Assembly: GCF_963921235.1 (NCBI RefSeq)
Contig: NC_086097.1
Location: 95,296,001-95,360,000, forward strand
Direction of reading: 5' to 3'
DNA: 64,000 bases
Origin: Mobula hypostoma
Taxonomy: Eukaryota
The translations under genes were made by a program, and so were the position numbers. A model generated the notes under the pieces. It had not been told where the DNA came from and did not search any database. It saw only the letters and a list, made by a program, of their open reading frames with translations. Position 1 is the first letter of the stretch; each line of letters starts with the position of its first letter. Positions 432 through 61,988 of this stretch are shown in pieces.

Positions 432-621
432 CACGAGGAAATCTGCAGATGCTGGAAATTCAAGCAACACACACAAAATGCTGGTGGAACGCAGCAGGCC
501 AGACAGCATCTATAGGAAGAAGCACAGTCGACGTTTCCGGCCCAGACCCTTCGTTAGGACTAGTGCTTCTTTCTATGGCTGCTGTCTGGCCTGCTGCGTT
601 CCACCAGCATTTTGTGTGTGT
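432..621. mobile_element. Fold-back non-autonomous Penelope-like (family A) insertion
   Basis: Inverted arms (caacacacacaaaatgctggtggaacgcagcagg / cctgctgcgttccaccagcattttgtgtgtgtt); 15-bp direct repeat tcactgaaacatatt at 417-431 and 622-636; 33-nt tail at 432-464. Confidence 0.85.
525..563 (-). ncRNA. Degenerate minimal hammerhead ribozyme (PLE family A), core CUAACGA
   Basis: Minus strand reads agtc-CTAACGA-a-gggtctgggccg-GAAAC-GTC-gact; G5 of the CUGA turn is changed to A. Confidence 0.6.
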
Positions 622-682
622 TCACTGAAACATATTGGCCTTTTAGACCCTTGAGCCAGTTCTGACACCCAGTCTGATTTAA

Positions 683-11682: not shown

Positions 11683-12802
<1,120 letters not shown>

Positions 12803-19100: not shown

Positions 19101-19293
19101 CTCCCAATGTGGCCTTCTATATATTGGCGACACCCGACGCAGACTGGGAGACCGTTTCGCTGAACTCCCAATGTGGCCTTCTATGTATTGGCGAGACCCG
19201 ACGCAGACTAGGAGATAATTTCGCTGAACTCCCGATGTGGCCTTCTATATACTGGGCAAGACCTAACGCAGACTGGGAGACTGTTTCACAGAA
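19101..19293 (+). repeat. Three tandem 64-65 bp copies of the YIG-coding segment
   Basis: Units 19101-19164, 19165-19228 and 19229-19293, each starting ctccc(a/g)atgtggccttcta. Confidence 0.95.
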
Positions 19294-19790
19294 CACCTAT
19301 GTTCTGCTCGCCAGAGAAAGCAGGATCTCCCAGTGGCCATACATTTTAATTCCACATCCCATTCCCATTCTGTTATGTCTATCCACGGCCTCCTCTACTG
19401 TAAAGATGAAGCCACACTCAGGTTGGAGGAACAACACCTTATATTCCGTCTGGGTAGCCTCCAACCTGATGGCATGAACATTGACTTCTCAAACTTCTGC
19501 TAATGCCCCACCTCCCCCTCGTACCCCATCCGTTATTTATTTATATACACACATTCTTTTTCTCTCTCTCCTTTTTCTCCCTCTGTCCCTCTCACTATAC
19601 CCCTTGCCCATCCTCTGGTCCCACCCCTTTCTTTCTCCCTGGGCCTCTGGTCCCATGATCCTCTCATATCCCTTTTGCCAATCAACTGTCCAGCTCTTGG
19701 CTCCATTCCTCCCCCTCCTGTCTTCTCCTATCATTTTGGATCTCCCCCTCCTCCTCCCACTTTCAACTCTCTTACTATCTCTTCTTTCAG

Positions 19791-19829
19791 TTAGTCCTGA
19801 CGAAGGGTCTCGGCCCGAAACGTCAACTG
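19791..19829 (+). ncRNA. Minimal hammerhead ribozyme motif (PLE family A)
   Basis: agtc-CTGACGA-a-gggtc/tc/ggccc-GAAAC-GTC-aact; core intact, one helix I mismatch. Confidence 0.75.
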
Positions 19830-20688
19830 TACCTCTTCCTAGAGATGCTGCCTGGCCTGCTGCGTTCACCAGCAACTTTGATGTTTGTTGCTTGAACCAT
19901 TCTTTTCTCTTTGTTCACCCCATCTAAAACAGTCACAATCATCTTATTACTCCGAATTCTCCTCCAAATCTCTGTGCACTGACAGCACAGCCTCGGCTTC
20001 TGGTTTAACTGAAGCTGAAATGTTGCAGCGCCTAAACCATTCCAATAAATGCATTTTGCACCCTCTCACATTCTCCTTAAATTGTAATAAAGGGAAAAGC
20101 AGAAAAAAATAGAAATAGGGGTAGGCCACTCAGACCGATGAGCCTCCTTTCACTCATATGCAATACACTAGTTGAGACCTAGCCAACGTTTTATAAAGGT
20201 GCAACCTAACTTCCCTCTGACACCTTTATTTATGATGGACAGTCTTCCATATGCTTTACTCACCACTTGCATTTATACTCGTGTATATCCAGGCCCCTTG
20301 CCCCTTCCCACTTCTTAAAGCTAGTCTATTTCTATCTCTTGTTCTTGAGGCAGGGTAAGGATCACAGGGTGAAGTAAACAAGAGAAGTGTAACACCAAGT
20401 CAAGAGGAACAAGGGAGCAAGCTTAAGGTTTAGGAAGCAAGAGTCATAAAGTTACAAAGGAGCCAGTAAGGAGCTTAAGAATTGACTAAGGAAAGCAAGT
20501 AACAGACATGAGAAGGCCTTGGTGAGTAGGGTTAGGAAAAACCCAAAGCAGTCTATACATGAGTAAAGAATAGGAGGATGACTAGAGTGGGATTGAACTG
20601 ATCAGGGATAATAACGAGAAATAATATGTGCCTGAGGTCTGTGGTGAGGGGGTGGGGGATCTTTAATGAATATTTTGCTTCGGTATTG

Positions 20689-20766: not shown

Positions 20767-21075
20767 AGTGAGAGGGAGATTGATGAATAGGAGGACAGCA
20801 CAGAACAGAACAGGCTAAGATGGTGGAACATATTAACATTAATAAAGAGGATGTACTACAACTTTGGAAAAACATTTGGATAGAAAAGTCCCCAGGGCCG
20901 GACAGGATAGATCCCAAGTTGGTAGGAAGGGATGGAAGATATTGCTGCACCTTTGGCAATGATCTTTTTGCATTCTCATTGGCCACAGGAGTAGTACCTG
21001 AAGACTGGAGGGTGGCAAAAGTTATTTGTTTGCTCCAGAAAGATAATAGTAATAACCTTGGGAATTATAGACCGG

Positions 21076-21175
21076 CAACAAACACAAAATGCTGGAGGAA
21101 CTCAGCAGGCCAGGAAGCATCTATGGAAAAGATTAAACTGTCGATGTTTCAGGCCAAGACCCTTCATCAGAACTA
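21076..21175 (-). mobile_element. PLE family A terminus with hammerhead motif (21138-21174)
   Basis: Minus strand gtt-CTGATGA-a-gggtc/tt/ggcct-GAAAC-ATC-gac, followed by gatgcttcctggcctgctgagttcctccagcattttgtgt. Confidence 0.75.
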
Positions 21176-37253: not shown

Positions 37254-37418
37254 ACACATACAAAATGCTGGAGGAACTCAAAAGGTTAGGCAGCATCTGT
37301 GGAAAGGGATAAACAGTCAATGTTTCAGGCCAAGACCCTTCACCAGGATGGAGTACCTTCAGCATTTTGTGTATGTCAGTCTGGATTTCCAAACTCTGCA
37401 GAATCTATTGTCTTTTGA
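37254..37418. mobile_element. Older fold-back PLE family A insertion inside a CR1 remnant (36950-37640)
   Basis: 11-bp TSD gtattatggtg at 37243-37253 and 37419-37429; minus-strand hammerhead with mutated core CTGGTGA at 37314-37348. Confidence 0.75.
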
Positions 37419-39165
37419 GTATTATGGTGCAACATTCATTCCGCCAGCACCCTATGGGAAGGCTATCACGGCACTGGTGGTGGAGGTCGGTCCTCTCACA
37501 ACATTAAAGAGGAATCTAAATGAACACCTAAATAACCAAGCATAGAAGTCTGTAGACCAAGACCTGCAGGCGGGACTAGAACAGATGGTGGTTTAGACAT
37601 GGTAGGTTGAAAAGCCTGTTTGTGCACTGCATGACTCTATGACATCGGGTGGGAAGTTAACAAGAAAAAAAAGTGATAGAATCAGCAAATGACCTTTTTT
37701 TCTCTGTTACACTGCTCAGGACAGGGTTTATCATTACCCCACATCCCATTTATACACTTTTATAGCACCTTTCAAGACTGCAGTATAGCCAAGGGTCTCA
37801 TGACAAATAAACTGCCATCAATTACTGTATGTAGTTTTGGAAATGCCGCAGCCAACCTGTACTCACGATAAACCAAAACCAGATAATGTTACCAAATCTG
37901 ACTGATCTTTTTTTGGATGAACAAATACTGACCAGGACATCACCCAGGTCATTTATGTCACAGTGGTGCAAGCTCAAAGACAGCAGTACAGCTCACCTTC
38001 AGCACTGAGACTTATTTTTTGGAATGGAATTTAAGTCCACAAGCTGGTGGTTCAGAGCCACAGCTGACAAATTAAACTAACTTTCTATCAGATGCAATGG
38101 CAAGCAAACAAAAGGAACCAGAGGCCAATACTAAAAGCTGTACTAAATGTTATCAAAAACTAGGAGCGGGTGGAAGATTATAAACAATCAAAAATAAATT
38201 GGGTAAGTAATTAAAGAGGACCAAAATTAAGAGGAAGGAAATTCCTGTCTTTTTCCCAGTAAATAATAAAATACAGGAAGGTCCAAATTTGCCAAATCAT
38301 TCCCTTTGGTCCTGTGGTGCTTTAACATTGGGTCTGATGGAAATATTGCCTGTTATTTTCCAAGTTGCTGATTATTGCCTCTGTCTCAGTTCTGTTTCAT
38401 TGTGCAGGGTGTGCAGATGGGGGAGAAGTCTGCTCTTTGTTCTTCACAGGCACCAGATATTAGGGTATCTAAGTCATGTATCTTCTGACTTTCTCCACTG
38501 GAATATGGCTTGAGTGACACCTAGAAATCTGCCCTCAGTCAGCAGCACTAAACTGGCTGCAGTGTCACTTATACCTAAGCTGTTTTTGACTCTCTTTCAG
38601 AATCAATTGAACCAAGTTTTGAAAGCACACAGATGACATCTACTACACAGCCCTAATAACCAGAGTTGGATGCCTATGCAGTTTTTAATTCTGGTTAACT
38701 GATACAGCCATTTAGAACACAGAATGAAAATTCTCAGAAATGGGTCAAACTTGCACAGGTTGTCCACAAGGAAGAGTTTGAACACAGCTATGGTAAGATG
38801 TGTCAGTGCTAAAGTGGAGATGTTTTTCACTCTCCAAATTGCACAACACTCAGTCTTGCACTCTAAATGGTTTAGAAGTGTAATAGTGTCTAGGCCACAG
38901 TGAACCACCATAGCTTACATCGTTGTTATCCCTCTCAAAACAAACTGAACCTGTTTAGGCTTCATTTGCTGAACTTTCCCCAGCATCCTTCAGCTTCAGA
39001 GCACATATGATTTAATTAGGCAAGGACAAGATAGCCTTCAGTCACAGATTAGTAAAACATAAAAATGTTCAAAGCAAATTTATTATCAAAGTATTTATTT
39101 GTCACCATATACTACAATGAGATTCATTTTCTTGCAGGTGTTCACAGTAGGGCAAAGAAATACAA

Positions 39166-39565
39166 TTGACATATTGGAATGGGAATGGGAAGTAGAATTA
39201 AAATGGGTAGCCACTGGAAGATCCCACTTGTTCTGGCAGACGGAGCATAGATGCTCGGCGAAGCGGTCTCCCAATCTACATCAGGTCTCACCGATGTACA
39301 GCAGGCCACACCAGCATGCACCAAACACGGCAAATGACCCCAACAGACTCACAGGTGAAGTACCACCTCACCTGGAAGGACTGTTTAGGGCCCTGGAGGA
39401 GGTGTAGGGGCAGGTGTAGCACTTGTTCTGTTGGCAAGGATGAGTGTCAGGAGGGAGATCAGTGGGGAGGGACAAATGGACAAGGGAGTCATATAGCAGA
39501 AAGCAGAAAGTGGAGGGAGGAAAAGATGTGCTTGGTGGTGAGATCCCGTTGAAAGTGGCGAAAAT
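39166..39565 (-). mobile_element. PLE GIY-YIG fragment
   Basis: Minus strand GLLYIGET..RLGDRFAEHLCSVCQNKWDLPVATHFNS, homologous to 19101-19380. Confidence 0.85.
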
Positions 39566-39811
39566 TATGGAGAATTATGTGCTATACACCTTTTACACTG
39601 CCTGAAAGAGTGGTGGAAGTCAAGTTGCTGGCAACACTTAACAAAGTTCTTGATGAGCACTAAAATTGCCCAGGTATAGAAAGCTATGGGCCAAGTACTG
39701 GAAAGTGGGATTAAAAAGGATAGGTGCCCACTGTTTGGTATGAACTTGAAATGAATAGCCAGTTTCAATGCTGTTTGATTATGACTGAAGATTTACATGA
39801 GGCTTCTTTAA

Positions 39812-40010
39812 GGAGCAGCACACAATCTGCTGGATGAACTCAGCAGGTCAAGCAGCATCTGTGGGGGACAGGAACTGTCAGTGTTTCAGATCGCAAACCT
39901 GCATCAGAATCTGAGCCAGATCTCAACCAAAAATGTTGACAATTCCTTCAACTCCACACCCCCCCCCACCCCACCCCAACAGATCTGAGTTCCTCCAGCT
40001 CCAGATTTCA
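39812..40010. mobile_element. Old fold-back PLE-terminus insertion with decayed hammerhead
   Basis: ctgctggatgaactcagcaggtc..; minus CTGATGC..GAAAC at about 39875-39910; opposite arm ctgagttcctccagc. Confidence 0.6.
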
Positions 40011-40886
40011 GCCAATGCTTCTTTAGAGGATTGGCCAGAATTCAAAATCTTAGTATTAGCAAAATGAAATGAAGAAAAATAAGATGGATTTTGAGAAGAA
40101 TATTCTTTTTGGAAATCATTAAGGAAGGCTAAAGAATGGACAAAGAAACATTTAGCCAGTGCATTTCTTCATTTGATTATTGCCATGAACCAACTATTTA
40201 ACCAAGAAGAAGGTGGAGAGTACTTCTGCTAGCAGCGAAGAGTTATGATCTGGATGTGTTTTCTGGAAGAGCGCTGGAAGCCAATCCAATTGCATCTTTC
40301 AAATGATAATTGGACAAATATTTAAAATGGAGAAAACACAGAGCCACAGGCTGTGAAAATAATTGCATTTTCAAAAAGCACTACAAGTATGAAGGACTGA
40401 ATAAGTTCCTTTTGTATCGTGAATTTCACAATTCTATTCAATAATTTGTATATATCTAAGACAAATATCACCAGATATTACTCAGGAAAATCAACACAAG
40501 TCAAACAGGAGGCTGCAATTCATTGATTTATTGCCCTAATATTACAGATTATCAGAAATATTCAGTCAAATGCAGATTCAGATTGAAATGTATTTATCCA
40601 ACGCACATCGAAACATACAGTAAAATGTGTTGTTTGCGTTAACAACCAACACACCCAAGGATGCCCCAGGGCACCAACAAGTGCTGCCACATAGAAAAGA
40701 TGCTGCCGAAAATCTGAAATAATACTCTGCAGAAAGCTGGAACAATTCTCCTTCCTGCATTTATCACCACTGTCTTAATGCAACACCAACTGCTACGTGT
40801 CAAGTTGATACTAAGAAAGGGAATGTTGCACTGTGCCCTCATGCAGTCAGGCTCAGATGCTTTAGGAATATTCTCTACATCCAGGG

Positions 40887-40937
40887 CAGGGGCTCCCAAC
40901 CTGGGGTCCATGGCATAAAAAAGTTTGGGAATCCCTG
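40887..40937. mobile_element. Tiny hAT-type MITE
   Basis: caggggctcccaacc..tttgggaatccctg inverted termini. Confidence 0.55.
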
Positions 40938-43900
40938 ATGTAGACAAACAATGTTCTCAATGAACATTCTTGTATTCCAGGTTCCACAAAGTTCTGCTGA
41001 AAATACTAATGGTGGTTACACTGAGTACAGTTGCCCAGCCATGAAAGAGTGACCTTTCTCATTGATAAACACCTTCCTCCCTCTAACTACAATATATCAC
41101 AGAATGGACACTGACTTTTCGCCACGATAATCACTCTTCAATGAATTGCTCCATGGCTGTTTTGTGGCCAGAGGGTTGGAGTGCTGAGGTGCAGGGTGTA
41201 AATTAAACAAAAGACCAACAAACAGGTAGCCTGTCCTGATAATCAAACAGTACGGTTACTTCTGCATGCAGATGGAAAAAGCAGGAACCCATACTGTCCC
41301 AACAGCTGCTTCATGGGGTGAGGGAAGAGTCTGTACACGGCAGGAAATAGGTTACCAGTGAATGTGTGAATGCATGCCCATGCAAATAATGGGCATGGGA
41401 ATATATGACTGAGAAAAGACCTGCATTTTTACGATATTTATCACAAAATATCCAAAAAGTGCCCCAAAATGCTGCGTAGAGCTGAAAAACTACTTTAGAA
41501 ACAAATTATTATTGCAATGTAGGAAAGCTAGCATCTAATCTGTGCACAGCAACATCCCAAAACAGCAATGAAATAATAACTGGGTACCCTTCAGTTAATA
41601 AAGTTGGACAAATGATAAATATTGCCTACTTGCTTTTGAAATGGCTCTTTGGAGATCTTTTACAGTACAGCACTTTCTCAGGAATCCACTGGGATTGTCA
41701 ACCTAGAATGTGCATTCATTTGTCAATTGGGGTATAACAGCAAAATACTTTTCAAACTGAACTGCAGTTATCTTGGACAGCAGTTCAAACTAAAGGCACA
41801 AAAGGTGCAATACCTGTCAACCAAGCAACTTATTCCTGCCAACTTCAACCCCCAAAATGTTAATCAACACCAAACACAGCATTCCTGTTTCTCATTCAGT
41901 TTATCAGAATAGCGTGACTAAATCTGTTAAATTTGGCAAGGGAACATCAGGTGCTGTTAAATAGATAACAGATAAGCATTTTAAAGTAATTTAAGGCAGG
42001 TCTCCAGGTTCATTCTTTGCCTGTTGATATGACTGACAGTTGCTGCAGGGAAGACAAAGAGTTTTCTTCCCTGCATGTCAGCATCAGGTTACCACTAATA
42101 AGGTTATCCTCAGTCCAGAGAAGGGAGAGACAACAAGAAATAGTGCTGACAGCAAAAAACAAAGACACAGTTTAAACAGTTTGTTAGTACTTTTCAGCCT
42201 TCAGGGAGTACATACAAACTGGCCCCAAACCCGCACTCCATAAGAAAACGTCAACACAATTCCAGAAAGCAATAATGCTGCACAATACAGCTAAATCCTA
42301 CAGCTAAGGGGAATATAGATGGAGATGGAGACATTTGGAACAAAAAGGATTTAGAAAAAGGGAGTGTTTCATGCACAGGAAATATAGGCAGGAAAAGGAT
42401 AGACTATAGATATTACAGATAAATAAAGAAGGTATAAGATAAAAAATAAAAATATTGAGAGAGAAAGAAAACAAAGGACATAGCAAGTGAATTAATACAC
42501 GATTGAACCAAAATTAGCCTTAACACACTAAGTTAGGAGAGGTAGAAGCCATCTAGGGTATCACTGCTGATCACCACCTCTCCAGATAAGTATATTTGTG
42601 TGGCTAGTGGAAGGTTGGCTGAGAGAGAAAAAGGTAGTCAACAGCCATGTTTAAGGCACAGTACTTTTAGGATACAGATTATGCAGTGGATGCAAACTGC
42701 AGTAACATGCAGCGCACGAAACAGGCAGTGAGCAAACAGACATAGATCAGACAGTGAACATGCAACCGCCGATCAAGCAGTGAACACAAATATCAGGCAA
42801 TGAATTTTGACCACCACCAGTAAGGGGAATGAGCCAGGGTGGGGAAAAGAAATTGAAGGTATTGAGTGCACTGTAAAATATAGAGAGACTGGGAAAGGAA
42901 CTATTGGTAATCTGTCATTTCTATAAGCAATTGGACAAAAGTTATGCTGTCAAAGTAACAGAAAATAACTTCACTCAGGTCTTTTAACTGATTGTTACTC
43001 AATTGCACAGTCATTCTACATCTGGAAGACATAAAGATTAAATACAAGTTCCATGATGTGCATCTACAGATTTCCAAAAAAAAAATGTTTTGGCCAATTG
43101 ACTGCTTGATACAACTTTTGACAGATACATTTGAACTGCATACAAATGACCCTGGAGCATTTTATTCAGCCTGTAGTATATCGCTAAAGCCAATAACCAC
43201 CTTAAAAGAAACTACTTTTACTACTTCAGCTCTGTAGTGACTTGGCATAAGGATAATATATCAGATTGTATGGGATGGCTTTGCTTAGAAATAATCTTCA
43301 GTGGAATCAGCAAGATAAAGACACCCATTTTAAACTGCCCAGTGTATCTTTTAAATGTATCTCCCCAGCTGCACAGTACCTAAACTGTAAAGTGGTGTTC
43401 GTGACTCTTAAAGAATTCCCATGGTTATACTTGTTGTTTCTTACACTTCCCGCTACATCTGACCTTTCTGTTTTGCTTTACCATAGGCCATTGGTGAAAC
43501 AACAGCGATATTATGAGTAAAACTAACAAGAACACTGTGGAAAAAGTAAATTGGATTAAAAAGAAACTAACTTGTAAAGCAAATCTGTAACAGTTAAACA
43601 GCTTCAAAATTTATATATTTCACTCTGAAACACAATTTAACAAAACTGTCTGTTGTGTCTTTCTCCACCTTTAATATTTTTTACTTCAAGATCTCAGCTC
43701 CCCATACATACCTCAATCATTCTCCACCATTCACTTCAATCATGGCTAGAGTGCATGTTAACTCTGCATATTGAATTTTGCTCCTAAGATTTTGCTACTC
43801 TATATGACAGCATCCACAACCCACAGGAAGAGAAGATTCCAAATTCTCATTAAACTGTGGATGAAAAAAAGTGCTGCTTGATTTTCCCACCCTAAATATA

Positions 43901-46859
43901 ATTTTAATTTAAAAAATTTGCACAATACTTCTCCAATTCAGCACTTTTGAATACTCTTAGGTGCATTTCATTGCCACTAGTCACCATTTTAACTGCGCAC
44001 TGCAGCTTGGAAGTTGAGCAAACGAGCAGAAAAATGGCGGACATGATCTTACATAATGTCTTTCACAACCACAGAACAACTGAAAGCTTTTGCCAACAGT
44101 GAAATAATTTGGAAGAAGAGTTACTATTGTAAAGTTGGAAATGGAAAAGGCAGTTTGCACAGACCACGATCCTTCCTGAAAGTGTAGTGAGAGCATGAGT
44201 TTATTATTTCATCTGAAATGTGGCAAATTCAACAGTGCAGCTCTGTTTTAGTGGATTACATAAATGACAGCCAAGATTCTGTGTGCAGGAACCAGGAGTG
44301 GGATCAGTCTCAGAGGCGATAGCACTGCCCACTGAGCCATAGCCAATACTGCATATGCAGCCGGAGAAAAAGGAACAACAATGCGAGGACTACAGAGACC
44401 AGTTGCTGACACCAACCATGAGCAAGGCTATGGAAATGCACCAGAAAATTTAAGAGCTACAAACAGAAATATCATCAAGGGTGCATTTTTCCTGAATAGG
44501 TTCATATTGAATTCCCCCTCAAAATACACCCGAGGTGCACTCTTCCCTACAGAATATGCTGGATCAGAAAACTTGAATTCATACTATTCGTAAGTGTTTT
44601 AAAACCAAATAATTTGTTTTGCAGACAAGTAATTGACGCCAAAGTGGATATTTGGGAGATATGATTTTCTAAACACTATTGCTATGGCAAAGATTATAAA
44701 CTGGGCACGTTACAGTACTTGTGAAGGAATATGTTACAGAGCATGTGACTTGCTACAAAATATCTTAGGTATTTTTCTCCAATCAATGTGAAATGTGTGT
44801 TTTTCCCTATAGAATAAACTGCATGACTTTCTAGATCTGAAAGTTATAAAGATAGGAATATTTTGGAAGGAACAGCACCAACATGTTATTATCATTGGTT
44901 TATCAACAAGTGGGAAGACCACTTGAGTACAGAATTTCCACGTGAATGCTCATAACACCCAGCATCATCTCATTACATATGCCTTTTGACCCTTCCACTG
45001 TCTTCAGGTTTTTAGATTGCTTATCAACATCTGGTTGATCAGAAATTTCATCCAACCATATATTAGCAGACCAAAACCAATGCCTTCAGTTCCCACGATT
45101 GCCCCACTGGCTCTTCAGAAACAGCTTGAACTTGAACCATGCTATTCACAAATTTCATCATATTTGAGATGAGCTTTGGACCCAAAATTCAGGTCACCAC
45201 CAAAACCATCCATTCTTACTTGAACGCATGGCAAATGAGAAATAATTTTATCCAAGTATGGAATTTCACTGAAATGACAAACATGGGAACAGCCCTTCAG
45301 CCCCAAAGATCTAAGTTGTTGTCTAGACGTTCCTGCCTAAATTCTACCAATATGTTGATTTTGCTACCAGAGGTGAAAATACACAAGATCTGGTTTATAC
45401 CAATATACCAGGTGTCTGTAAAGCAGCCTTTTGACCCCACATTGGACTCTCAGATCACTATCTGTAATGTTAATTCCAGCATACAAACCTGTGATCAAAC
45501 ACATCAAACCAGTTCTAAATGTAGTGAAAACCGGGCCTGAGGGTACGATCTCTGCACTGCAGGACTGTTTGATAATATGAACTGGAGAATGTTCAGGGAG
45601 GTTGCTACCTATGGCAACCATGTTAACATTGAGGAATATGTGGATTCTGTGACCAGCTACACAGGGAAGTGTACTGAGGATATTACCATCACAAAACACA
45701 CCTGGCTGAGGGCCAATCTGAAGCCATTGCTTGATGCAGAGATCCGTTCATGGCTGAGAGATCGCGATTCTGCCTTTAGATCGGGGGATGTGACAACTCT
45801 CAGGGAAGCAGGAACTGTGCTTTCCCACTCCATCAGGAAGGGGAGATAGGAGTGTTCTTAGAGAATTTACAGTCACTTCTGCAATACCAGAGACACGAGG
45901 CGCATATGGCAGGGAATTCAGAAGATTACAGACTACAAGTCTACCTGCACATCAGTGACAAGGATGCTTCACTTCCTGAGAGGCCACATGTCTTCTACAC
46001 CCAGCTTAATGTGCAGAACAAAGTGCAGGCGAGGAAGGCACCCCTCTCCCCAGGGGAGCAGACACCCCATCTGGCTGAAGCTGAGGTGAGGAAGACCCTG
46101 GTCAGGGTCAACCCCCACAAAGCTGTAGCGCCCGCTAATATACCAGGTCGGGATCTGAAAGACTGTGTAACCCAACTGACAGAGGTGCTGATGGACATAT
46201 TCAACGTCTCTCTGAAAGAATCCATTGTCCCCGCGATTTTCAGCGTGGCAACCATCATTCCGGTGCCAAAGAAGGTGACAGTAACCTGCCTAAATGACTA
46301 TCACCCAATGGCATTAACATCAACCATTATGAAATGCCTTGAATGGCTGGTCATGGAGCACATTAAAGCCTTTCTTCCAGCTCCATTGGACCCATTCCAG
46401 TTTGCTTATCGCTCAGATCAATCCACTGACAATCCAATAGTCTCTGCCCTCCACCTTGTCCTGTCCCACCTGGAAAATCAGGTCTCGTATACCAAACTGC
46501 TGTTTACAGGCTTCAGTTCAACGTTCAACACCACCATGCCCAGAAACTGGAGGTGAAACTGTCCTCACTGGGTCTCAACACCTCCCTCTGCAATTGGATA
46601 CTGGACTTCTTAACAGTAATGCCACAGTCAGTCCTTGCAGGCAGCACCATCTCGTCCCATTATGCTGAACACCTGCGTTCCACGAGACGTGTGCTCAGCC
46701 TGCTGCTGTTCACACTGCTGAGGTACGACTGTGTCACAGGATCCAGCTCAAACCAAGTAATCAAGTTTGCGGATGACATAGCAGAGGTTGGCCTCATCGA
46801 GAATGATGACCAGATGAAGAATAGAGAGGAACTGGAGTGGACAATGTTGGAGAAATTTT

Positions 46860-46981
46860 CAAATCTCTTACTAACTCTTCCTTCAGTTAGTCCTGACGAA
46901 GGGTCTTGGCCTGAAACGTCGACTGTACCTCTTCCTAGAGGTGCTGCCTGGCCTGCTGCGTTCACCAGCAACTTTGATGTG
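46860..46981 (+). mobile_element. PLE family A terminal fragment
   Basis: Direct repeat tgttggagaaatttt at 46845-46859 and 46982-46996; near-identical to 19763-19890. Confidence 0.88.
46887..46925 (+). ncRNA. Minimal hammerhead ribozyme motif, best-preserved copy (PLE family A)
   Basis: agtc-CTGACGA-a-gggtc/tt/ggcct-GAAAC-GTC-gact; helix I agtc/gact intact; predicted cleavage after C46920. Confidence 0.8.
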
Positions 46982-47720
46982 TGTTGGAGAAATTTTGTCT
47001 CATTTCTATATATATTATATACATGTATGTAGTTAAATGACAATGAACTTCACTTGACAGTTGGCTAAGATCAAATACTCTCTCTGTTTGCCTCAATGAG
47101 TATAGTCCTGCAAACTGCAATCCATCCCCTGATGGATTGGTGAGAGAAGAACAACCCAAGCTTGAATATGAAGACGACTTTAGAAAGGTGCAGACGAACC
47201 ATCCCCCTCAGTGAACAAGAAGGCACAGCAGCGTCTCTACTTCTTAAGAAGATTGAGGCAAGCGGGCCTCCCCACTCCCACGTTAACTGCGTTTTACAGG
47301 AGTACCATTGAGAACTTCCTGACAAGCTGCATCTCCTGGTATGGGAGCAGTAGAACATCGGACCAGAAGTCCCTACAAAGGACTGTGAGAACAGTTGAGA
47401 GGATCAGAGTGGTCTTCCTACCATTCATCAGGGATATTCATCAGGAGCACTGCGTAAGCAGGGCCCTTACTATTATTAAGAATCCCACCCAGCCATCCAA
47501 CATCCTCTTTGACTTTCTACCATCAGGCAGGAGACTACAATGCATAAAAACAGGAATGGTCAGGATGAGAAACCATTTCTTCCCCAAGGCTATTTGGTTT
47601 CTGAACTCCCCGTTACATCGTATTCGAAGTGTTACTGGCTAATCTGTTCCTTACCTTACAATATTTAATATTATTGCACTTCAGTTTGTTATTTATGTGT
47701 GATTCATCTGTAGAATTTTT

Positions 47721-48343
47721 TTAGATTATGAAGACACGCAGTCCTCTTTTATTGTCATTTAGTAACGCATGCATTAAGAAATGATACAATATTTCCTCCG
47801 GTGTGATATCACAAAACACAGGACAGACCAAGACTGAAAAAAACTAACAAAACCACATAATTATAACATATAGTTACAACAGTGCAACAATACCATAACT
47901 TGATGAAGAAGTCCATGAGCACAGTAGAAGTTCAAAGTCTCTCAAATGTCCCACATCTCACGTAGACAGGAGAAGGAAGAAAAACTCTCCTTGCCATACC
48001 CGACCACGGTCCGACTCTGAGTCATCCGAAAACTTCGAGCTCTGATCAGCTCTCCGACACTGAGTACTGAGCGCCATCTCTATCCGAACGATTCGACCTT
48101 CATCTCGGTCGCCAACAGCAGGCAAAGCCAGGGATTTTGAGGCTTTCCCTCCAAAAGATTCCTGACTGCGCAGTAACGACAGCAGCAAATGAGCGTTTCA
48201 GAAATTTTTCCAGATGTTCCTCTGTGCTTTCACATCCATTTGCCATCAAATCAGAATTGTCCACAGCCCCTATTTAACAGATACGATATCATTTTTCACC
48301 AGAAGGCTGTGCACACGCAGCACGCTGCTTCTCTCTCCTCCCG
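47721..48343 (-). mobile_element. Non-coding SINE-like retroposon, copy 2 (diverged subfamily of 8646-9328)
   Basis: Collinear similarity, including ggaacatctgg..ttctgaaa, gctcgaagttttcgga.gactcagagtcgg and the 3' gaggactgcgtgtcttcataatcta. Confidence 0.75.
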
Positions 48344-48735
48344 CTATCCTTACCTTCATAAGTTATCGGATGTTATGTGTACTACTACACTTCACACCCA
48401 GGTTTGGAGAAATGTTGTCTCATTTCTATATATATTATATGGTTATATACATGATATACATGTATGTAGTTAAATGACAATAAATTTCACTTCACAGTTG
48501 ACCAAGATCAAATATGCTCACTGTTTGCCTCAATGCGTACAGTCCTACAAACTGTAAGAAATCTAACACTATCTAAGTAAATGCAAATTTCTTCTGTCCA
48601 CTATGGTGGCTGTAGTTCAAAATTCAAAGAACATTCAGTATCAAAGTACACCTATGTCACCAAACCTGAGATTAATTTTCTTGTGGGTATTCACAGTAAA
48701 TTCAAAGAAACACAATAGAATCAGTAAAAAACTAC

Positions 48736-49046
48736 GAGGCATCCGTTAATCTTGCAAGACCATGGATCTGTGCCTGGAAAGTCTTCACTCTCCAGCGCGC
48801 AGGCCTGGGCAAGGTTGTATGGGAGACCAGTAGTTGCCCACGCTGCAAGTCTCCCCTCTCCACGACACTGATGTTGTCCAAGGGAAGGGCATTAGGACCC
48901 ATACAGCTTGGCACCAGTGTTGTCGCAGAGCAACGTGTGGTTAAGTGCCTTGCTCAAGGACACAACACGCGTTGCCTCGGCTGGGGCTTGAACCCTCAAC
49001 CTTCAGATCATTAGTCGAATGCCTTAACCATTTGCCACGTGCCCAC
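48736..49046 (-). mobile_element. tRNA-derived SINE with CORE-like central domain
   Basis: A-box tggcaaatggtt, B-box ggttcaagccc, then tgtgtccttgagcaaggcacttaacc. Confidence 0.75.
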
Positions 49047-49682
49047 CAATAAAAATAAAAAACTACACACAACACACAACAAAAATGGACAAATAAACGA
49101 TGTGCAAAAGAAAACAAAATGTGCAAATACAAAAAGAGGGGAAAAACAAAATAATATAATAATAAACAAACAATAAATATTGACAACATGAGTTGTAGAG
49201 TCCTTGAAAGTGAATCCATAGGTTGTTAAACCAGTTCAGTATTGGGTTGAGTAAAGTTGAGTGGAGTTGTCCCCTTTGGTTCAAGAGCAAAAAAACCCAA
49301 ATATAAACACAGAAATAAGTAAGTACATAAGCAATACCAAGAATATGAGTTGTAGAGTGCTCGAGTGAGTCCACAGGCTGTGTTCAGTGATCAGTTCAGT
49401 GTTGAGGTGAGTGATGCTACCCACGCTGGATCCCCACAGGAGCCTGATAGTTGAGGGGAAATAACTGCACCTGAAACTGGTGGGGTGGGACCTGAGGCTC
49501 CTGTATCTCCTTCCTGATGGCAGCAGTGAGAAGAGACACTACCTAGATGGTGGGAGTCTTTGGTGATGTGACAGCACTCCTCGTAGAAGTGATATAACCA
49601 GTCAGTATACTCTCACCACACATCTACAGATGTTTGCCTAAGTTCAAAGTAAATTTATTATCAAAGTGCATATATGTCCAAA

Positions 49683-52600
49683 AGACCATAAGACATAAGA
49701 GCAGAATTAGGCCATTTGGCCTATCAAGTCTGTTCCGCCATTCAATCATGGCTGATCCTTTCCCCCCCAACATCATTCCCCAACCTTCTCCCCATAATTT
49801 TTGATACCATGTCCAATCAAGAACCTATTGATCTCTCTCTTAAATACACACAATGAATCACCCCCACAGCTTAACAATTGACCCCAACATCTTCCCAACC
49901 ACTAAGGTCAGCCTAACTGGTCTATAATTTCTTTTCTGCTGCCTTCCTCTTTTCTTAAAGAGTGGAGTGACATTTGCAAATTTCTAGTCCCCTGGCACCA
50001 TTCCAGAGTCCAACGATTTTTGAAGGATCATTGCTCATGCCTCGACAAACTCTACCGCTACCTCTTTCAGAACCTTAGGGTACAGTCCATCTGGTCTGGG
50101 TGACTTATGTACCCTTACGTCTTTCAGCTTTTGGAACACTTTCTCCCTTGTAATAATAACTGCACTCACTTCTCTTCCTTCACACACTGCAACATTTGGG
50201 TCACTGCTAGTGTCTTCCACAGTGAAGACTGATGCAAAATACTCATTTAGTTCATCTGCCATCTCCTTGGCCCCTGTTATTATTTCTCTGGGCTCATTTT
50301 CTAGTGGTCCTACATCCACTCTCATCTCTCTTTTATTTTTTTACATAGTTGACAAAGCTTTTATAATCCACTTTGATATTGTTTGCTAGTTTGCTTTCAG
50401 GTTTCATCTTTTCTCTCCTAATGATTCATTTAGTTGCTATCTGTAGGTTTTTAAAAGCATCCCAATGCTCTATCTTTCCACTAATTTTTGCTTTGTTGTA
50501 TGCCCTCTCTTTTCTTTTTACATTAGTTTTGACTTCCTTTGTGAGCCATGGTTATACTGTTTTGCCATTTGAGTATTTCTTCATTTTTGGAATACATCTG
50601 TCCTGCACCTTCCTCATTTTTCCCAGAAACTCACACCATTAATGCTCTGTGTCATTCCTGCCAGCAGCTCTTTCCAACTTACTTTGGTCAACCAACACAC
50701 ATAAAAGTTGCTGGTGAACGCAGCAGGCCAGGCAGCATCTCTAGGAAGAGGTGCAGTCGACGTCTCAGCCTGGAACATCGACTGCACCTCTTCTTAGAGA
50801 TGCTGCCTGGCCTGCTGCGTTCACCAGCAACTTTTATGTGTGTTGATTGAATTTCCAGCATCTGCAGAATTCCTGTTGTTTACTTTGGTCAACTCCTCTC
50901 TTGTACCACTGTAATTTCCTTTACTCCATTAAAATACTGCTATGTCAGACTTTACTTTCTCCCTATCAAATTTCAAGTTGAACTCAATCGTATTGTGATC
51001 ACTGGCTCCTAAATCCTCTTTTACCTTAAGCTCTGGTTCATTACATACCACCCAATCCAGTATAGCTGATCCCCTAGTAGGTTCTAAAAAGCCATCTCAT
51101 AGGCATTCAATAAACTCACTCTCTTGAGATCCATTACCAACCTGATTTTCCCAATCAAAGTGCATATTAAAATCTCCCATGACTATCATGACATTGCCCT
51201 TTTGACATGCATTTTCTGTTTTCTGTTGTAATCTGTGGTCCACATCCCAGCTACTGTTGGGAGGCCTGTATATAACTGCCATCAGGGTCCTTTTACCCTT
51301 GGGGTTTCATAACTAAACCCACAAGGATTCAACATCTTCTGATCCTATGTCACATCTTTCTACTGATTTGATGACATTCTTTACCAGCAGAGCCACGCTA
51401 CCCCCTCTGCCTACTTTTCTATCCCTCCAATACAATGTGTAACCTTGGACGTTCAGCTTCCAACTACAACCACCCTTCATCTACAATTCAGTGATGGGCA
51501 CAACATCATACCTGATAATCTGTAATAGTGCAACAAGATCATTCACCTTGTTTGTTACACCCTTTGCATTGAGATATAACACTTTGAGTGCTACCCTTTT
51601 TCATTTTGCATCCCTAATGCACTAATACTCACCCTGCTGGCTACAATTTTGCCCTATCATCTGGCTGCCCTTCCTGAAAGCCTGACTGCACATTATCTTT
51701 GCTTTTTTATCATTCATCCTATCCTGAGTCCCTTCATTCCAGTTCCCACCCCCCTGCCAAATTAGTTTAAACCCTCCCCAGCAGCTCTAACAAACCTGCC
51801 CATGAGAATATTGGTCCCCTTCTGGTTCAGCTGCAACCCATCTACAGGTCATACCTCCCCCAGAAGAGATCCTGAAGCCCTGCCCCCCGCACCAACTTCT
51901 CAGCCACACATTTTTGTGCCAGATCATCCCTCACTAGAACATGGTACAGGTAACAATCCAGAAATTACTATCCTGGAGGTCCTGCTTCTCAGCTTGCTGC
52001 CTAGCTCTCTAAATTATCTCTTCAGGACCTCATTGGTTTTACTTCTTATGTCACCAATATGTACTAAAAAATCTGGCTCCTCTCCCTCCCCGTCTAAAAC
52101 GCTGTGGACATCCCTGACCCTGGGAGGCAACATACCTTGATATCAGAGATGTTCCTGATCCTGGCACCTGGGAGGCAACATACCATCTGGGTGTCCCATT
52201 CACGGCCACAGAGTCTCCTGTCTGTTCCTCTGACTATCACTAACACTCCCCTCTTCTCCCTCTTTCCCTTCTGCACCATGGACCCATGCTCAGTGCTCAT
52301 AACCTGGTCTCCATGGCATTCCGCTGGGAGGTCATCCTCCACACAAGTATTCAAAATTGGTATACTTATTTTTGAGGGGAATGGCAAAGGAGTGCTCTGT
52401 GCTCACTGCCTATTCACATTTCCATTTCTCCTGACAGTCACCCACCTACTTGCCTCCTGCAACTTTGGGGTAACTACTTCCCTGTAACGCTGATCAATTA
52501 TCTCCTCACTCTCCCGCACAAGCTGAGGGTCAGCCAGCTGCTCTCCAGATCCCTAACATGGTCTTCCAGGAGCTGCAGCTGGATGCACTTAACACAGATG

Positions 52601-52900
52601 TAGTTCCCTGGGAGACTTTGGGTCTCCCAGGACTCTAACATCTGGCATGAAGAACACACAACAGCTATTTACTACACTAAGTATTCTGAGAGAGAGAAAA
52701 AAAGGGAACCTTAACAGAATCTTGCTCAGAGCCAATGCCTATTCCAAGCTGAAGCCTCCTTTGAGCCAAAGCCTGACACTCCTACTCTCACCACTAGCCT
52801 ACTCCCAACAATGGCTGCCCCGCTTGTCCCTGCTGTACTTTTATTTAATTCACGGTGCTCTGCTCCCGCCGTTGATTGGGCTTTCAGAATGTCTGAACGC
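49683..52900 (-). mobile_element. CR1 LINE with 5' UTR, ORF1 and endonuclease; most of the RT is deleted
   Basis: Minus: ORF1 VCCLPGAR, EN YRPPNS..MGDFN, ELNEYFASVFT, KSP.PDG; sequence jumps at about 49870 straight to the 3' end tctgctcttatgtcttatggtct. Confidence 0.88.
50693..50879. mobile_element. Fold-back PLE family A mini-insertion
   Basis: About 68-bp near-perfect arms 50693-50760 and 50778-50845; 34-nt tail 50846-50879; 14-bp TSD ttactttggtcaac at 50679-50692 and 50880-50893. Confidence 0.9.
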
Positions 52901-53299
52901 CTGCGAAGCTCTCCTTTTAAGCAAGCATTGTTGACCTGCGAGAACATTGCTCCTGCCACTAACTGGGCCTCCGTGTCACCGTGCCCGACGCAGGCCCCCT
53001 GGGCCTGAGTCGACGTAGTAGTAGTAATGTCACCATATGCAACCCTGAGATTCATTTTCTAGTAGGCACACTCCATAAATCCATAATAGAATAAAAACTA
53101 TCGATGAAAGACCCCACCAACTTGGGCATACAACCAGGGTGCAAAAGACAACACATACCCCTTCAATTGACCTTTGAACTCTATTGGCTCATGTCTTTTG
53201 GGTTCGTAAATGGCATCTATTTCAATATGTTTGTATCTACAAATCCCAAAGAGGCAAAGAGACGCGAATCAATAGAATTCAAAGGTCAAGGGAAGGAGT

Positions 53300-53435
53300 A
53301 GCCAATCAGGACCGAGGAAAACTATGGAGGCCTATATAAACACGAGCACTCCCAGAGAGTAACACCAACAACCACGCACTGAGGATGCCACCTTGACTGG
53401 TGATGAAATGTCTGCAAGCTAATTGCCAAGCTCAG
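53300..53435 (+). mobile_element. Probable PLE family C terminal repeat
   Basis: ccaatcag..tatataaac followed by a hammerhead motif; sequence unrelated to families A and B outside the core. Confidence 0.55.
53375..53416 (+). ncRNA. Minimal hammerhead ribozyme motif (family C)
   Basis: gca-CTGAGGA-t-gccacc/ttgact/ggtgat-GAAAT-GTC-tgc. Confidence 0.7.
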
Positions 53436-53795
53436 AATATAAGGTGCTGCTCTTCCACACTGAGTGAGGATGGCCTCATCTTTGCACTAGAGGAGTCATG
53501 GACCAACACGTGGGAATGGGAATAGGAATCAGAATTAAAATGTTTGGCCACTGGGAGGTTCCACTTGTGACAGATGGTGCGGAGGTGCTTGATGAAGCGA
53601 TTCCCCAATTTATGACAGGGCTCACAAATGTAGAGGAGGCCGCATTGGGAGCACCGGACACAATAGACAACCCTAGTAGGTTCACAGGTGAAGAGTCGCC
53701 TCACCTAGATGGACTGTTTGGGGCCTGAAAAGGGGTGAGGGAGGAGGTGTGCATGTTGCTTTGGATTTCCAGCTTCGGCAGACTTTCTTGTATTT
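53436..53795 (-). mobile_element. PLE GIY-YIG fragment with inverted tail
   Basis: ORF 53432-53704 FTCEPTRVVYCVRCSQCGLLYI..HFNS..EEQHLIF; inverted tail ggatttccagc at about 53763. Confidence 0.85.
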
Positions 53796-54954
53796 AGATT
53801 TTGAAGGAAGTAAAGCAGGAAATGATAGCTAAATTAAAAGGAAATGCCACATGGCTCTCGATGTTATACAGTGCTCAGAGGAAAAAATATGTGGAGTTTC
53901 TAAGGTATAATTAGAATTAAGTGTTGTGGAATGCTTGGATGCAATTTTACACACAAAGAACGCACTTAGATTTTTGGAGAAGAAAAAGAATGTAGATTTT
54001 TGAAGACGTAAAATCTTTGAGATATAATACTGCAGTAAAGGTGCAAAGATCTTTTGCAAAAATTATACAATAAAGGTATGTTGCTTTTTTAGGATAAGTA
54101 CTGGGAAAATGAGAAGCCACAAGAAGTGATAGAATATGAAATGGAGTAGAGAAAACATTTCTTCCTCCTACCAAAATCATCTTGTACAATTCAATGAGGT
54201 TCTTCACAGAACACATCTGGACAACAGCTGGTTCCATGCTTGAGAAAGCTGGTGCTGATCCTTTTCAATTGGGTGTTATGCTTTTTTTCCTAATTTTCTG
54301 GCTTCTTACCTGCCTTGCATGTTGCATCTTCCACAGTACTAGGGGCCTTTCCATTTAAAAAAAGAATTCTTCTTTGCTTGGATTGGAATCTCTTCATTCA
54401 ACAAATACATTTAATTCCTTATTGGGTAAATATACCACACCTCAAAATCTTACTCTAACATAAGGGGCAAAAAAAACTTACTGCATTCAAAATGAACCTT
54501 TCACATTTGTTACTGGGCCAACCTGCCCAAACATATTCACAATCAGCAAATCATTCCAGAAGACTCAAATATCAGTGCTGAAAGACAAGATCATGAAGGG
54601 AGAGCAGGGTGACAAAGGCATGTTCTTACTATAATGACAGCTTCCAACAAGAGTCAGCAGAATCTTTAACTCTTTCATCACAACTCTCCACTTCACTCTG
54701 TCTGTACATCACAGAATTTCCTTTCATATCTCTCTGCACCTAAGAATTTGATCCTTCTCCTTTCTTTCACCATCCTACATGTTTTACTTCACCTTATCTC
54801 TGTACAGTGGAGTCATCAAGACTCCTTCATTCTTGTTCTTTCCCAGGAACTCTTAGTGTCAAACTCCTCCCCTTCTAGTCTTTTCCTGCTAGACTGAGAA
54901 ATAGCCAATTACAGACAGTAAGTTAATAGCCCTGAATTAGTCTGACAGGACATA

Positions 54955-55484
54955 CACTCTGTAGTCACTTTATTAGGTACAGGAGTGGAACCCGGTATGG
55001 TCTTCCACTGCTGTAGCCTATCCATTTCAAGGTTCAACATGCTGTGCATTCAGAGATTCTCTTCTGCACACCACTGTTGTAATGTGTGGTTACTTGAGTT
55101 ACTGTCGGCTTGAACCAGTCTGGCCATTCTCCTCTGAGCTCTCTCATTAACAAAGTCATTTTGCCCACAGAACTGATGCTCACTGGATATTATTTTGCTT
55201 TTCACACCATTCTCTGTAAACTCTGGAGATAATTGTAAATGAAAATCCCAGGAAATCAGCGATCTCTGAGATACTCCAACACTCCGTTTGGCACCAAAAA
55301 TCATTCTAGTCAAAGTCACTTAGATCTCATTTCTTCCCAATCAGATGTTCAGTCTGAACAAAAACTGAACCTCATGACCATACCTGTATGCTTTTAGGCA
55401 TTGAGTTGCTGCATATGATTGGCTGATTAGATATTTACATTAATGAACAGAGGTACAAGCAGATCTGATAAAATGGCCAGAGTG
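54955..55484 (-). mobile_element. Internally deleted Tc1-like element (a family other than SB)
   Basis: TA flanks; termini cactctgtagtcactttattag / ctgataaaatggccagagtg; minus frame remnant SSEHQFCGQ..VNERAQRRMARLVQAD from the paired-like DNA-binding region. Confidence 0.75.
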
Positions 55485-56394
55485 TATTTGCTTTTTCCTT
55501 CACAACCTTCAGCTTGAAAGCAGTTTGCACAAATTGGTGGATGTACCAAGTAATTTCGAGAAACAAAACGACTTGATAAACATGAATCCCAATGCTTTGC
55601 CGCATTGGTATAAGATCAGGTACAGAAAGATTTAAAAATTTAAATGATTCCCTGTCAGGCCTGAACAGGCTGAGTTAATTAATTCCCACATTGTTACCTA
55701 TCATCTCTTATTTTCTACAAGTTTATTTCATGCTTTAACGTGCAAATCCAACAATTTTTTTTAAATAGATAGGGAGAACAAGGGTAAAATACAAATCCTA
55801 CGTGGTGAACACAGTATGGCACATCGCAGTCTGCAACAATCCACAACGTCACTCTGTCCAATTTCAAACTGCTGTTTGATTTGTATATTAAAAAAGGCAG
55901 ACACAAAAAATCTGATTCTGATTCTGATAAACCTATCCTTTTATGCAGCAGCAAATCCCAGGATACTCTCTTTGCATCACTAAAACTTCGGTCTTAATTT
56001 AGGTAATGGGCCTTGGCTATTTCATAAGTTCTAATTTGCCCAATATCAAATTATACTACACAGAATATATACTTTCAGTCTATTCCAATGGCCAATTTGG
56101 GGGCTCCACCAAGCTATGTATTGCATTTGTTAGAAAACAATGTTCACCGTCACTGGATGCACTAACTTTCTTAAGCAGTCACTGGGTCAAGGGCAACTCA
56201 CTTTCACTCCCGTTGCATGGACTCTGAGATCACTGATGTGATAGCCACAGATGATGCTCAAAGGGGTGAGCAGATTGGTTGTATGGGAATTTTTATGTTT
56301 ATTCAAAATATACTTTAATCATAAAAAGTCATGTAATACAGACCACTCAAATCAACATTTTCATAACATGTTATTCCTATTATTTTTATTTTAT

Positions 56395-56655
56395 TTAGAA
56401 ACCCACCAACCTATGCCATCCAGCAAGTTACCTATTTAACCCTAGCCTAATCACAGGGCTGTTTACAGTGAACACTTAACCTACTAACCTGTATGTCTTT
56501 GGACTGCGGGAGGAAATGGGAGCACCCAGAGAAAACCCACATGCACATAGGAAGAACATACAAACTTTCTTACAAAGGACGCCAGAATTGAGTTCCGAAC
56601 TCTGATGCCCCAGGTTGTAATAGCGTCGCACCAACCGCTATGTTACCATGGCACA
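56395..56655 (-). mobile_element. V-domain tRNA-SINE
   Basis: Minus head ggtaacatagcggttggtgcgacgctattaca; V-domain tgggttttctctgggtgctcccatttcctcccgcagtccaaagac. Confidence 0.8.
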
Positions 56656-56754
56656 TTTCCTGTTAACATATCATCAATTAGCAGTCATAGACAATCTTCT
56701 GCAAATAGTTCTGTGGTTTTGGCATGGATTTCAATGAATCAGTGTGCAATGTGC

Positions 56755-61879: not shown

Positions 61880-61988
61880 GTACAGTTAGTCCTGACGAAG
61901 GGTCTCAGCCCGAAATGTGAACTGTACCTCTTCCTAGAGATGCTGCCTGGCCTGCTGCGCTCACCAGCAACTTTTATGTGTGTTGCTA
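61880..61988 (+). mobile_element. PLE family A terminal fragment with degenerate hammerhead (61886-61925)
   Basis: agtc-CTGACGA-a-gggtctcagccc-GAAAT-GTG (cleavage triplet lost); ends tgtgtgttg. Confidence 0.8.

Follow-up and report, generated by a model that had tools for sequence, protein, structure and literature searches.

The locus raises two questions: whether the short motif at positions 46889-46924 (+) is a working hammerhead ribozyme, and on which RNA it would act, that of host genes, as the preliminary description proposed, or that of the Penelope-like element (PLE) family which carries it. The window referred to below is the whole 64,000-nt stretch of Mobula hypostoma DNA that was analysed (64 kb); signed positions in family copies are counted from the predicted cut.

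The motif and its predicted fold

The letters at 46889-46924 (+) are AGUC / CUGACGA / A / GGGU-CUUG-GCCU / GAAA / C-G-U-C / GACU, with the following features.

46889..46924, + strand: minimal type I hammerhead motif, every consensus position present (sequence, descriptor, folding)
46889..46892, + strand: helix I 5' strand AGUC, partner strand 46921-46924 (sequence and folding model)
46893..46900, + strand: core C3-A9 (CUGACGA) and one extra A (46900) before 10.1 (sequence)
46901..46912, + strand: predicted helix II, 4 bp (G-U, G-C, G-C, U-G) with a 4-nt loop (folding model)
46913..46920, + strand: G12-A15.1, C15.2-G16.2-U16.1 and C17, predicted cut after C46920 (sequence; established hammerhead numbering)
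46921..46924, + strand: helix I 3' strand GACU (sequence and folding model)

The core is complete (C3 U4 G5 A6 N7 G8 A9, G12 A13 A14, A15.1-U16.1, H17), and the ACGU palindrome at 46916-46919 (15.2-16.2 palindromic) forms a helix III without a loop; sequence and descriptor thus confirm the complete core, the helix I and the vestigial palindromic helix III described previously. The descriptor is homology-free and requires the core, helix I, helix II and a self-complementary helix III. It matches the 64-kb window once, at 46889-46924, leaving no second intact hammerhead there by this measure, and has no match in any of 50 dinucleotide shuffles. A loose core pattern alone says little, since its excess over shuffled sequence is small (13 matches in the window vs. 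a shuffled mean of 5.4). The Rfam scan of the window (E up to 1) reports no hammerhead family, as would be expected given the loopless helix III; its 11 matches are all microRNA models on hairpins, mostly PLE fold-backs, and all are below gathering scores.

The predicted topology is type I, with helices I and II of 4 bp each, and depends on the context (helix I probability 0.0-0.9). The folding model disallows the helix II of 5 bp with a 2-nt loop given in the preliminary description; in its best register this helix has 4 bp with a 4-nt loop and is closed by G10.1-U11.1 (pair probabilities 0.87-0.97 in the 36-mer). An alternative A-U register of helix II lacking the extra base was rejected (-4.6 vs. 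-6.0, probability 0.02). The extra A after A9, likened earlier to that of a natural viroid hammerhead, is indeed present, but it is a feature of PLEs rather than a viroid-like oddity: in the study of Cervera and De la Pena (2014, PMC4209133) the consensus of PLE minimal hammerheads has an extra nucleotide after position 9, palindromic 15.2-16.2, and G10.1-C11.1, the last being G-U in the copy at 46889.

For the 36-mer monomer, the best fold (-10.0 kcal/mol vs. -6.0 for the hammerhead-like one) keeps helices I and II and pairs the core GACG (G5-N7-G8) with the cut-site CGUC. The predicted probability of helix I is 0.18 in 71 nt, about 0.5 in 221 nt, and 0.0 in its own 136-nt element context, where an upstream hairpin occupies the core. 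Double-hammerhead pairing of two copies scores -9.5, compared to -30.1 for a non-catalytic duplex, with core interactions unscored. As the model omits these interactions, the unfavourable scores point to a folding problem and not to inactivity, and the predicted misfolding fits the published need for a partner and a protein. Dimer cleavage of PLE hammerheads is also said to have been described by Lunse et al. in 2017. Letters upstream of helix I (46874-46903, +, and the same place in the intact element at locus L062) can pair with the core and the helix II 5' strand; this predicted anti-ribozyme hairpin would form only in transcripts reading in from upstream.

The carrier insertion, its family and the genomic load

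The motif is carried by a 127-bp PLE fragment inserted into decayed LINE sequence.

46845..46859, + strand: left target-site duplication, 15 nt if overlaps with the two ends of the element are included (15-mer found at 46845 and 46982 only)
46860..46986, + strand: 5'-truncated PLE insertion with the 3' UTR end, the hammerhead, and a short-form 3' end approximately +66 from the cut (the ends of the intact L062 unit match at 92-94% identity)
46982..46996, + strand: right target-site duplication (same 15-mer)

This copy starts at -61 relative to the cut, so its template RNA extended further upstream, through an intact hammerhead. A non-LTR retrozyme (in which non-coding units, each bearing a hammerhead, are repeated in tandem) was rejected as the source, the copy being a single truncated insertion with a target-site duplication and its parent being coding. 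The fragment sits at the start of another short repeat (46984-47120; 80% alike 48404-48557), which itself interrupts decayed LINE sequence.

Five recurrences of the motif had been reported in the window (19791, 61886, 525, 21138 and 37314). All of them are homologous to the copy at 46889, but none passes the descriptor, leaving one intact motif of six. These and other pieces of the family were delineated by homology.

19101..19896, + strand: young-subfamily PLE 3' fragment with a broken GIY-YIG C-terminus, 3' UTR and hammerhead 19793-19828 with A at 1.1
61883..61987, + strand: short young PLE copy whose start lies 5 nt upstream of helix I; hammerhead (61888) broken (U15.2, G17, A1.1)
436..622, - strand: fold-back PLE copy; hammerhead 526-561 with A5 and G11.1
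21075..21175, - strand: old-subfamily short copy; hammerhead 21139-21174 with A16.2
37254..37350, - strand: old-subfamily short copy; hammerhead 37315-37350 with G6, A16.2, U17 and altered helix I
39165..39911, - strand: old PLE 3' fragment with an endonuclease remnant and a decayed hammerhead 39876-39911
50688..50881, unstranded: fold-back PLE insertion turning inside the hammerhead, the whole motif being in neither arm
11957..12097, unstranded: fold-back PLE insertion, 3' flank only, inside a Tc1-type transposon
53435..53750, - strand: old PLE endonuclease fragment without a hammerhead

Homology confirms the GIY-YIG frame noted upstream of the copy at 19791 (63% identity to aa 954-1042 of the intact family protein by tblastn, E 4e-40), but this frame is disrupted by an internal triplication and is undetected by Pfam; at 19101-19297 (+) a 64-bp GIY-YIG coding stretch stands in three head-to-tail copies. 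Other repeats of the window include a second, distant Penelope-type RT remnant (33428-34086, +; approximately 30% identical to the main family protein), a Tc1-type transposon (11261-13038) with inverted repeats of about 410 bp and an open DDE frame (12107-12802), split by the PLE fold-back at 11957-12097, and a near-perfect 114-bp inverted repeat (6616-6729), unrelated to the PLE family and possibly a MITE.

Whole elements were sought in the window's own genome (3.48 Gb), where the RT fragment from the neighbour of the motif yields 150 scored near-identical matches among 53,506 candidates. The arrangement hammerhead-ORF-hammerhead, with a spacing of 3,510-3,517 bp, is observed in at least 5 of 20 regions chosen for long frames (at least L057, L059, L062, L071 and L074). 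Whole elements have two hammerheads 3.5 kb apart, of which the first precedes the likely start codon by about 140 nt and the second follows the stop by about 300 nt, so that both terminal repeats of the PLE carry the motif. The element in L062 has a single open frame of 1,043 codons with matches to RVT_1 (E 7e-5) and GIY-YIG (E 1e-3), both below Pfam cut-offs, and its protein contains DKG, YIDD and a CX4CX2C linker (aa 910-918) between RT and endonuclease; by the definition in PMC8557442 this linker would place the family with Neptune or Nematis, not Poseidon. Partial tandems occur in L062, with a third hammerhead 614 nt upstream, and in L071, with two units. The hallmarks of endonuclease-positive PLEs are thus present: partial tandems as pseudo-LTRs, inverted 5' copies, and an optional tail of 30-40 bp. 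In L062 (5150-5420, -) a 16-codon upstream frame opens 21 nt past the predicted cut and has its stop at +71, ahead of the in-frame ATG at +139; an in-frame ATG at +61 exists in some subfamilies only.

Whole elements and published features together support the earlier assignment of the motif to the minimal type I hammerheads of Penelope-like terminal repeats, and the copy at 46889 almost certainly belongs to this class.

The genomic load of the motif is large, as was expected from the window, although the density of six per 64 kb, which would equal about 326,000 genome-wide, proves five- to sevenfold too high. A 34-letter pattern (core, helix II, palindrome and three helix I pairs), matched exactly and genome-wide, occurs 48,191 times in 3.48 Gb, or once per 72 kb, while its reversed control does not occur at all. 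In a 1-Mb sample (100 evenly spaced 10-kb stretches from 6 large contigs) the descriptor finds 19 matches, all of them in the hammerhead PLE family, compared to 0-2 in five shuffles; extrapolation gives approximately 66,000. The same sample contains 186 family 3' ends (approximately 650,000 extrapolated). Among these, 184 were usable and 136 reached the motif by likeness; 29 were dropped because of gaps or junctions, and 107 were scored. Intact motifs were found in 12 of the 107, namely in 11 of 30 young and 1 of 77 old copies.

Such numbers might suggest that host pre-mRNAs are cut by the intact dispersed copies, of which there are tens of thousands, with an effect on host gene expression. 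The count exceeds those given in PMC4209133 for coelacanth (about 4,000) and Xenopus (about 9,000), and, according to a preprint (10.64898/2026.07.22.740005), tandem retrozymes are under-represented in Xenopus genes. On the other hand, in the tests described in PMC4209133 monomers of PLE minimal hammerheads were inactive and dimers weak, and in one vertebrate case, an anole PLE, the hammerhead cuts only with protein (PMC11167929). The copy at 46889 has no intact partner in the 64 kb, and dead copies show neither base-matched excess conservation nor loss in the core (see below). Moreover, the domain scan of 129 frames detected no host exon in the window, a scan by which small exons would be missed. 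These frames comprise 128 of the 158 lying in stretches unmasked by the 1-Mb sample and one more; the rest are known transposon frames. Only two matches were obtained, a transposase HTH and PF09004, which we take to be a domain typical of LINE proteins. The proposed action inside host pre-mRNAs thus finds no footing here, and as a genome-wide explanation it is extremely improbable. With no intact partner in the window and no host exon detected, the lone copy at 46889 is probably an inert passenger; that it cuts host RNA to a degree that matters is very improbable.

Decay of the motif, insertion ends and the copied RNA

Five CpG sites overlap needed positions of the hammerhead, and CpG transitions are the main lesions (G12A in 31, G16.2A in 32, G1.1A in 30, C17U in 27 and C15.2U in 24 of the 77 old copies), so after insertion copies lose the motif mainly through CpG decay. 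The extra nucleotide after position 9 is A in all 30 young and in 76 of 77 old copies.

Selection on dispersed copies was considered, as in a first test the core of old copies was better kept (67/691 vs. 142/1,034 changes, p 0.013), and was rejected: the core is A-rich, the copies were filtered by motif likeness, and the base-matched rates of change outside CpG differ in direction between core and flank (A 5.9 vs. 13.4%, C 7.8 vs. 13.3%, G 14.3 vs. 11.7%, T 9.2 vs. 7.0%). In young copies the difference between core and flank is absent (p 0.47). Given the mixed base-matched comparison, dispersed copies look neutral.

The comparison of subfamilies, made on majority rows of three close subfamilies (48, 13 and 16 copies), gives a different result. 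The 36-mer is identical at 31-32 positions, two differences of the old row being CpG decay (16.2 and 17), while the upstream sequence is identical at 35-42 of 63-64 positions; the 44 nt further downstream are kept similarly to the motif (36-41 of 46-47). No pair has changed on both sides among these subfamilies, only one-sided changes being observed, and no distant relatives that could be used for covariation were found in viral, prokaryote or metagenome contigs. Of the conservation and covariation proposed earlier as a check, there is therefore neither an excess in dead copies nor two-sided covariation; between subfamilies, however, the upstream UTR has changed more than the motif.

Two changes of the motif have each spread in a master lineage. 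One is U at 11.1, found in 74 of 89 copies of the youngest subfamily (G-U at 10.1-11.1), while older subfamilies have G-C. The other is C6 in an older subfamily: the C6-core pattern has 395 exact matches genome-wide compared to 218 for the G6 transition control, and C6 is found in 10 of the 77 old copies of the 1-Mb sample. Of the C6 loci L297-L326, 24 of 30 have old-type flanks (by eye), and several have endonuclease sequence upstream. In this older autonomous C6 subfamily loop II is often of the UUCG type. C6 is a known natural hammerhead variant that is slow in Mg2+ (PMC3088659) and favours Mn2+ (PMC7151607).

The spread of both changes raises the possibility that the motif is a catalytic relic, kept since the same 36 nt act as an internal promoter or as part of a protein-binding 5' structure. 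The downstream 44 nt, which are kept about as well as the hammerhead, are consistent with this, as are the internal promoter of Penelope from D. virilis, lying just inside its start (PMC2377424), and the spread of Naiad and most Chlamys PLEs without hammerheads (PMC8557442). Still, across the three subfamilies, whose upstream UTRs are only 55-66% alike, the palindrome, both helices and the extra A have been retained along with 10 of 11 core letters; the most variable position is the free position 7, and the sole core change to have spread is a variant known from nature, with weak activity. We regard the relic as rather improbable, and the family motif as fairly likely to be able to cut as a dimer or with a protein.

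Ends of insertions can be read as a record of which RNA was copied. They were mapped against L062 in 120 copies, the first 30 matches to each of four exact patterns whose letters are all 3' of the cut; this sample comes from the start of contig 1 and is not proportional to the family. The 3' ends cluster at +64 to +69 (43 copies) and at +100 to +108 (47 copies), two points approximately 36 nt apart that correspond to the known optional tail. Of the 5' ends, 2 are at +1 and 3 lie no more than 2 nt from the cut; 11 fall at -21 to -27 and 22 at -28 to -36, helix I beginning at -32. Per nucleotide at risk, the frequency of 5' ends is 0.5% at the cut, 2.8% at the front edge of the hammerhead, and 0.08-0.15% beyond -100. 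By junction class, 61 copies have inverted, 49 host, and 10 other element sequence; in the 61 inverted ones the mapping is blurred by local symmetry, and some fold-backs are counted via both arms. Of the 49 copies with host junctions, 8 have their end at -31 to -34 (binomial p about 2e-5, post hoc, as these 4 nt were picked after inspection of the data), and a target-site duplication accompanies 6 of these 8; 1 of the 49 ends at +1, also with a target-site duplication. Two further copies, L179 and L201, have a common upstream sequence and both start at +9, which suggests a PLE scrap carried inside another repeat.

These ends bear on the proposal made for PLEs in 2014, in which hammerhead cleavage of tandem transcripts is the routine source of unit-length RNA, and this RNA is then circularised and copied round. 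Two hammerheads do bracket the unit, there are the partial tandems in L062 and L071, and of the two copies beginning exactly at +1 one (L215) has a 9-nt target-site duplication; moreover, a ligated circle would keep an intact hammerhead in its copies, and hence intact junctions do not exclude circles. However, ends at +1 are no commoner than in the adjoining 30 nt (0.5 vs. 0.4% per nt), whereas they are five to seven times more frequent at the front edge, where a circle has no end, and for the anole PLE no reads with an end at the cut were obtained, the substrate being mainly unprocessed RNA (PMC11167929). Routine cutting and circularisation is accordingly unlikely, while it is likely that the copied RNA is mostly uncut.

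The copied RNA likely starts at the front edge of the hammerhead. The pile-up there could instead mark a site of RT stalling or template switching; a hairpin stall would be expected at the 3' side of a helix (near +5 or -19), which makes an RNA 5' end at about -32 the simpler reading. A promoter DPE at the exact spacing from either candidate start was not found, as the by-eye match is off by about 2 nt and was not counted. Assembled contigs of five sequencing runs, compared with the repeat or with positions 38000-57000, likewise list no site where many molecules end, although such contigs do not resolve ends, strand or level. The literature searched for hammerheads in shark, chondrichthyan or elasmobranch species and for start-site truncation showed no paper on the family or on the front-edge pile-up.

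Taken together, we consider it likely that the motif is the pseudo-LTR minimal hammerhead of an endonuclease-positive PLE, with slow dimer cleavage, probably protein-aided, an uncut template, and an inert lone copy at 46889. Two copies would pair through their ACGU palindromes and cleave slowly, probably with the help of the element protein, which may bind the RNA just 3' of the hammerhead, as in the anole element. Reverse transcription would begin inside the RNA at one of two points and then run back through the uncut hammerhead: priming from the 3' repeat would give long, variably truncated copies, and priming from the 5' repeat short ones running off the uncut 5' end. Short copies often stop at helix I, presumably because the element RNA begins there. 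As the insertion ends suggest an uncut template, cleavage would be a conditional side step, either a brake on tandem transcripts or their occasional processing, and not routine template production. Against this reading stand the lack of any pair changed on both sides between subfamilies, U11.1 of the youngest subfamily in place of the published G-C together with the slow-variant C6 of an older one, and the folding model, which puts the double hammerhead far below the non-catalytic duplex.

A more specific version, which we hold to be quite improbable, is that the mRNA starts at the first letter of the hammerhead and the partner-dependent cut is a concentration-sensing brake on retrotransposition, with stranded copies acting in trans. 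If so, a cut in the 5' repeat would remove the cap and one in the 3' repeat would sever the coding body from the RT start site; transcripts of approximately 50,000 stranded copies would supply trans partner halves shutting the active element down. CpG decay would then erode the brake, and master lineages with a weaker core (C6, U11.1) would escape it.

Comparison with known systems

A further PLE minimal hammerhead is what is new here; motifs of this class, and their association with Penelope elements, have been published before. The genome adds scale (about 48,000 perfect motifs) and a handle on what PLE hammerheads do, since young intact elements and three dated subfamilies let insertion ends serve as a record of the copied RNA. 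What this record favours is a template that is uncut and starts at the ribozyme, in agreement with one in vitro study and opposed to routine processing at the cut.

With the minimal hammerheads described in PMC4209133 the motif shares the type I topology, the absence of loop 3, palindromic 15.2-16.2, the extra nucleotide between 9 and 10.1, and a 4-bp helix I, as well as the location in both terminal repeats and copies that are mostly single and truncated. It differs in that helix II has 4 bp, compared to 7-8 bp in Schistosoma, and in that the Mobula family has G-U at 10.1-11.1 in its youngest subfamily and one C6 subfamily. Moreover, the exact count in Mobula exceeds the largest vertebrate count of that study about fivefold. 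Cartilaginous fish terms do not occur in one of the two supplements of that paper.

The closest functional comparison is PAc, the Poseidon element of Anolis carolinensis (Frangieh et al. 2024, PMC11167929). In that system mutation of the hammerhead leaves insertion in vitro unaffected, and the 30-40 bp tail is set by the two internal sites at which RT begins. Common to both are a hammerhead at the pLTR-ORF junction, two 3' ends, and evidence for an uncut template. In contrast to PAc, whose start codon is inside helix II, the likely start codon is here 61 or 139 nt after the cut; the family also has the CX2-5CXXC linker, which Poseidon lacks.

With the Neptune clade, as defined by Craig et al. 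(2021, PMC8557442), the family shares a single ORF, DKG, and the order RT, CX4CX2C, GIY-YIG with internal cysteines, and also partial tandems, inverted 5' copies, and the optional tail, though its placement is by the linker motif, which is common to Nematis as well. The target-site duplications listed here give no sign of the insertion into (TA)n that has been suggested for Neptune. Finally, as in non-LTR retrozymes (PMC7229834 and preprint 10.64898/2026.07.22.740005), the hammerheads are of type I, derived from PLEs and found in vertebrates, one cartilaginous fish being among those described.
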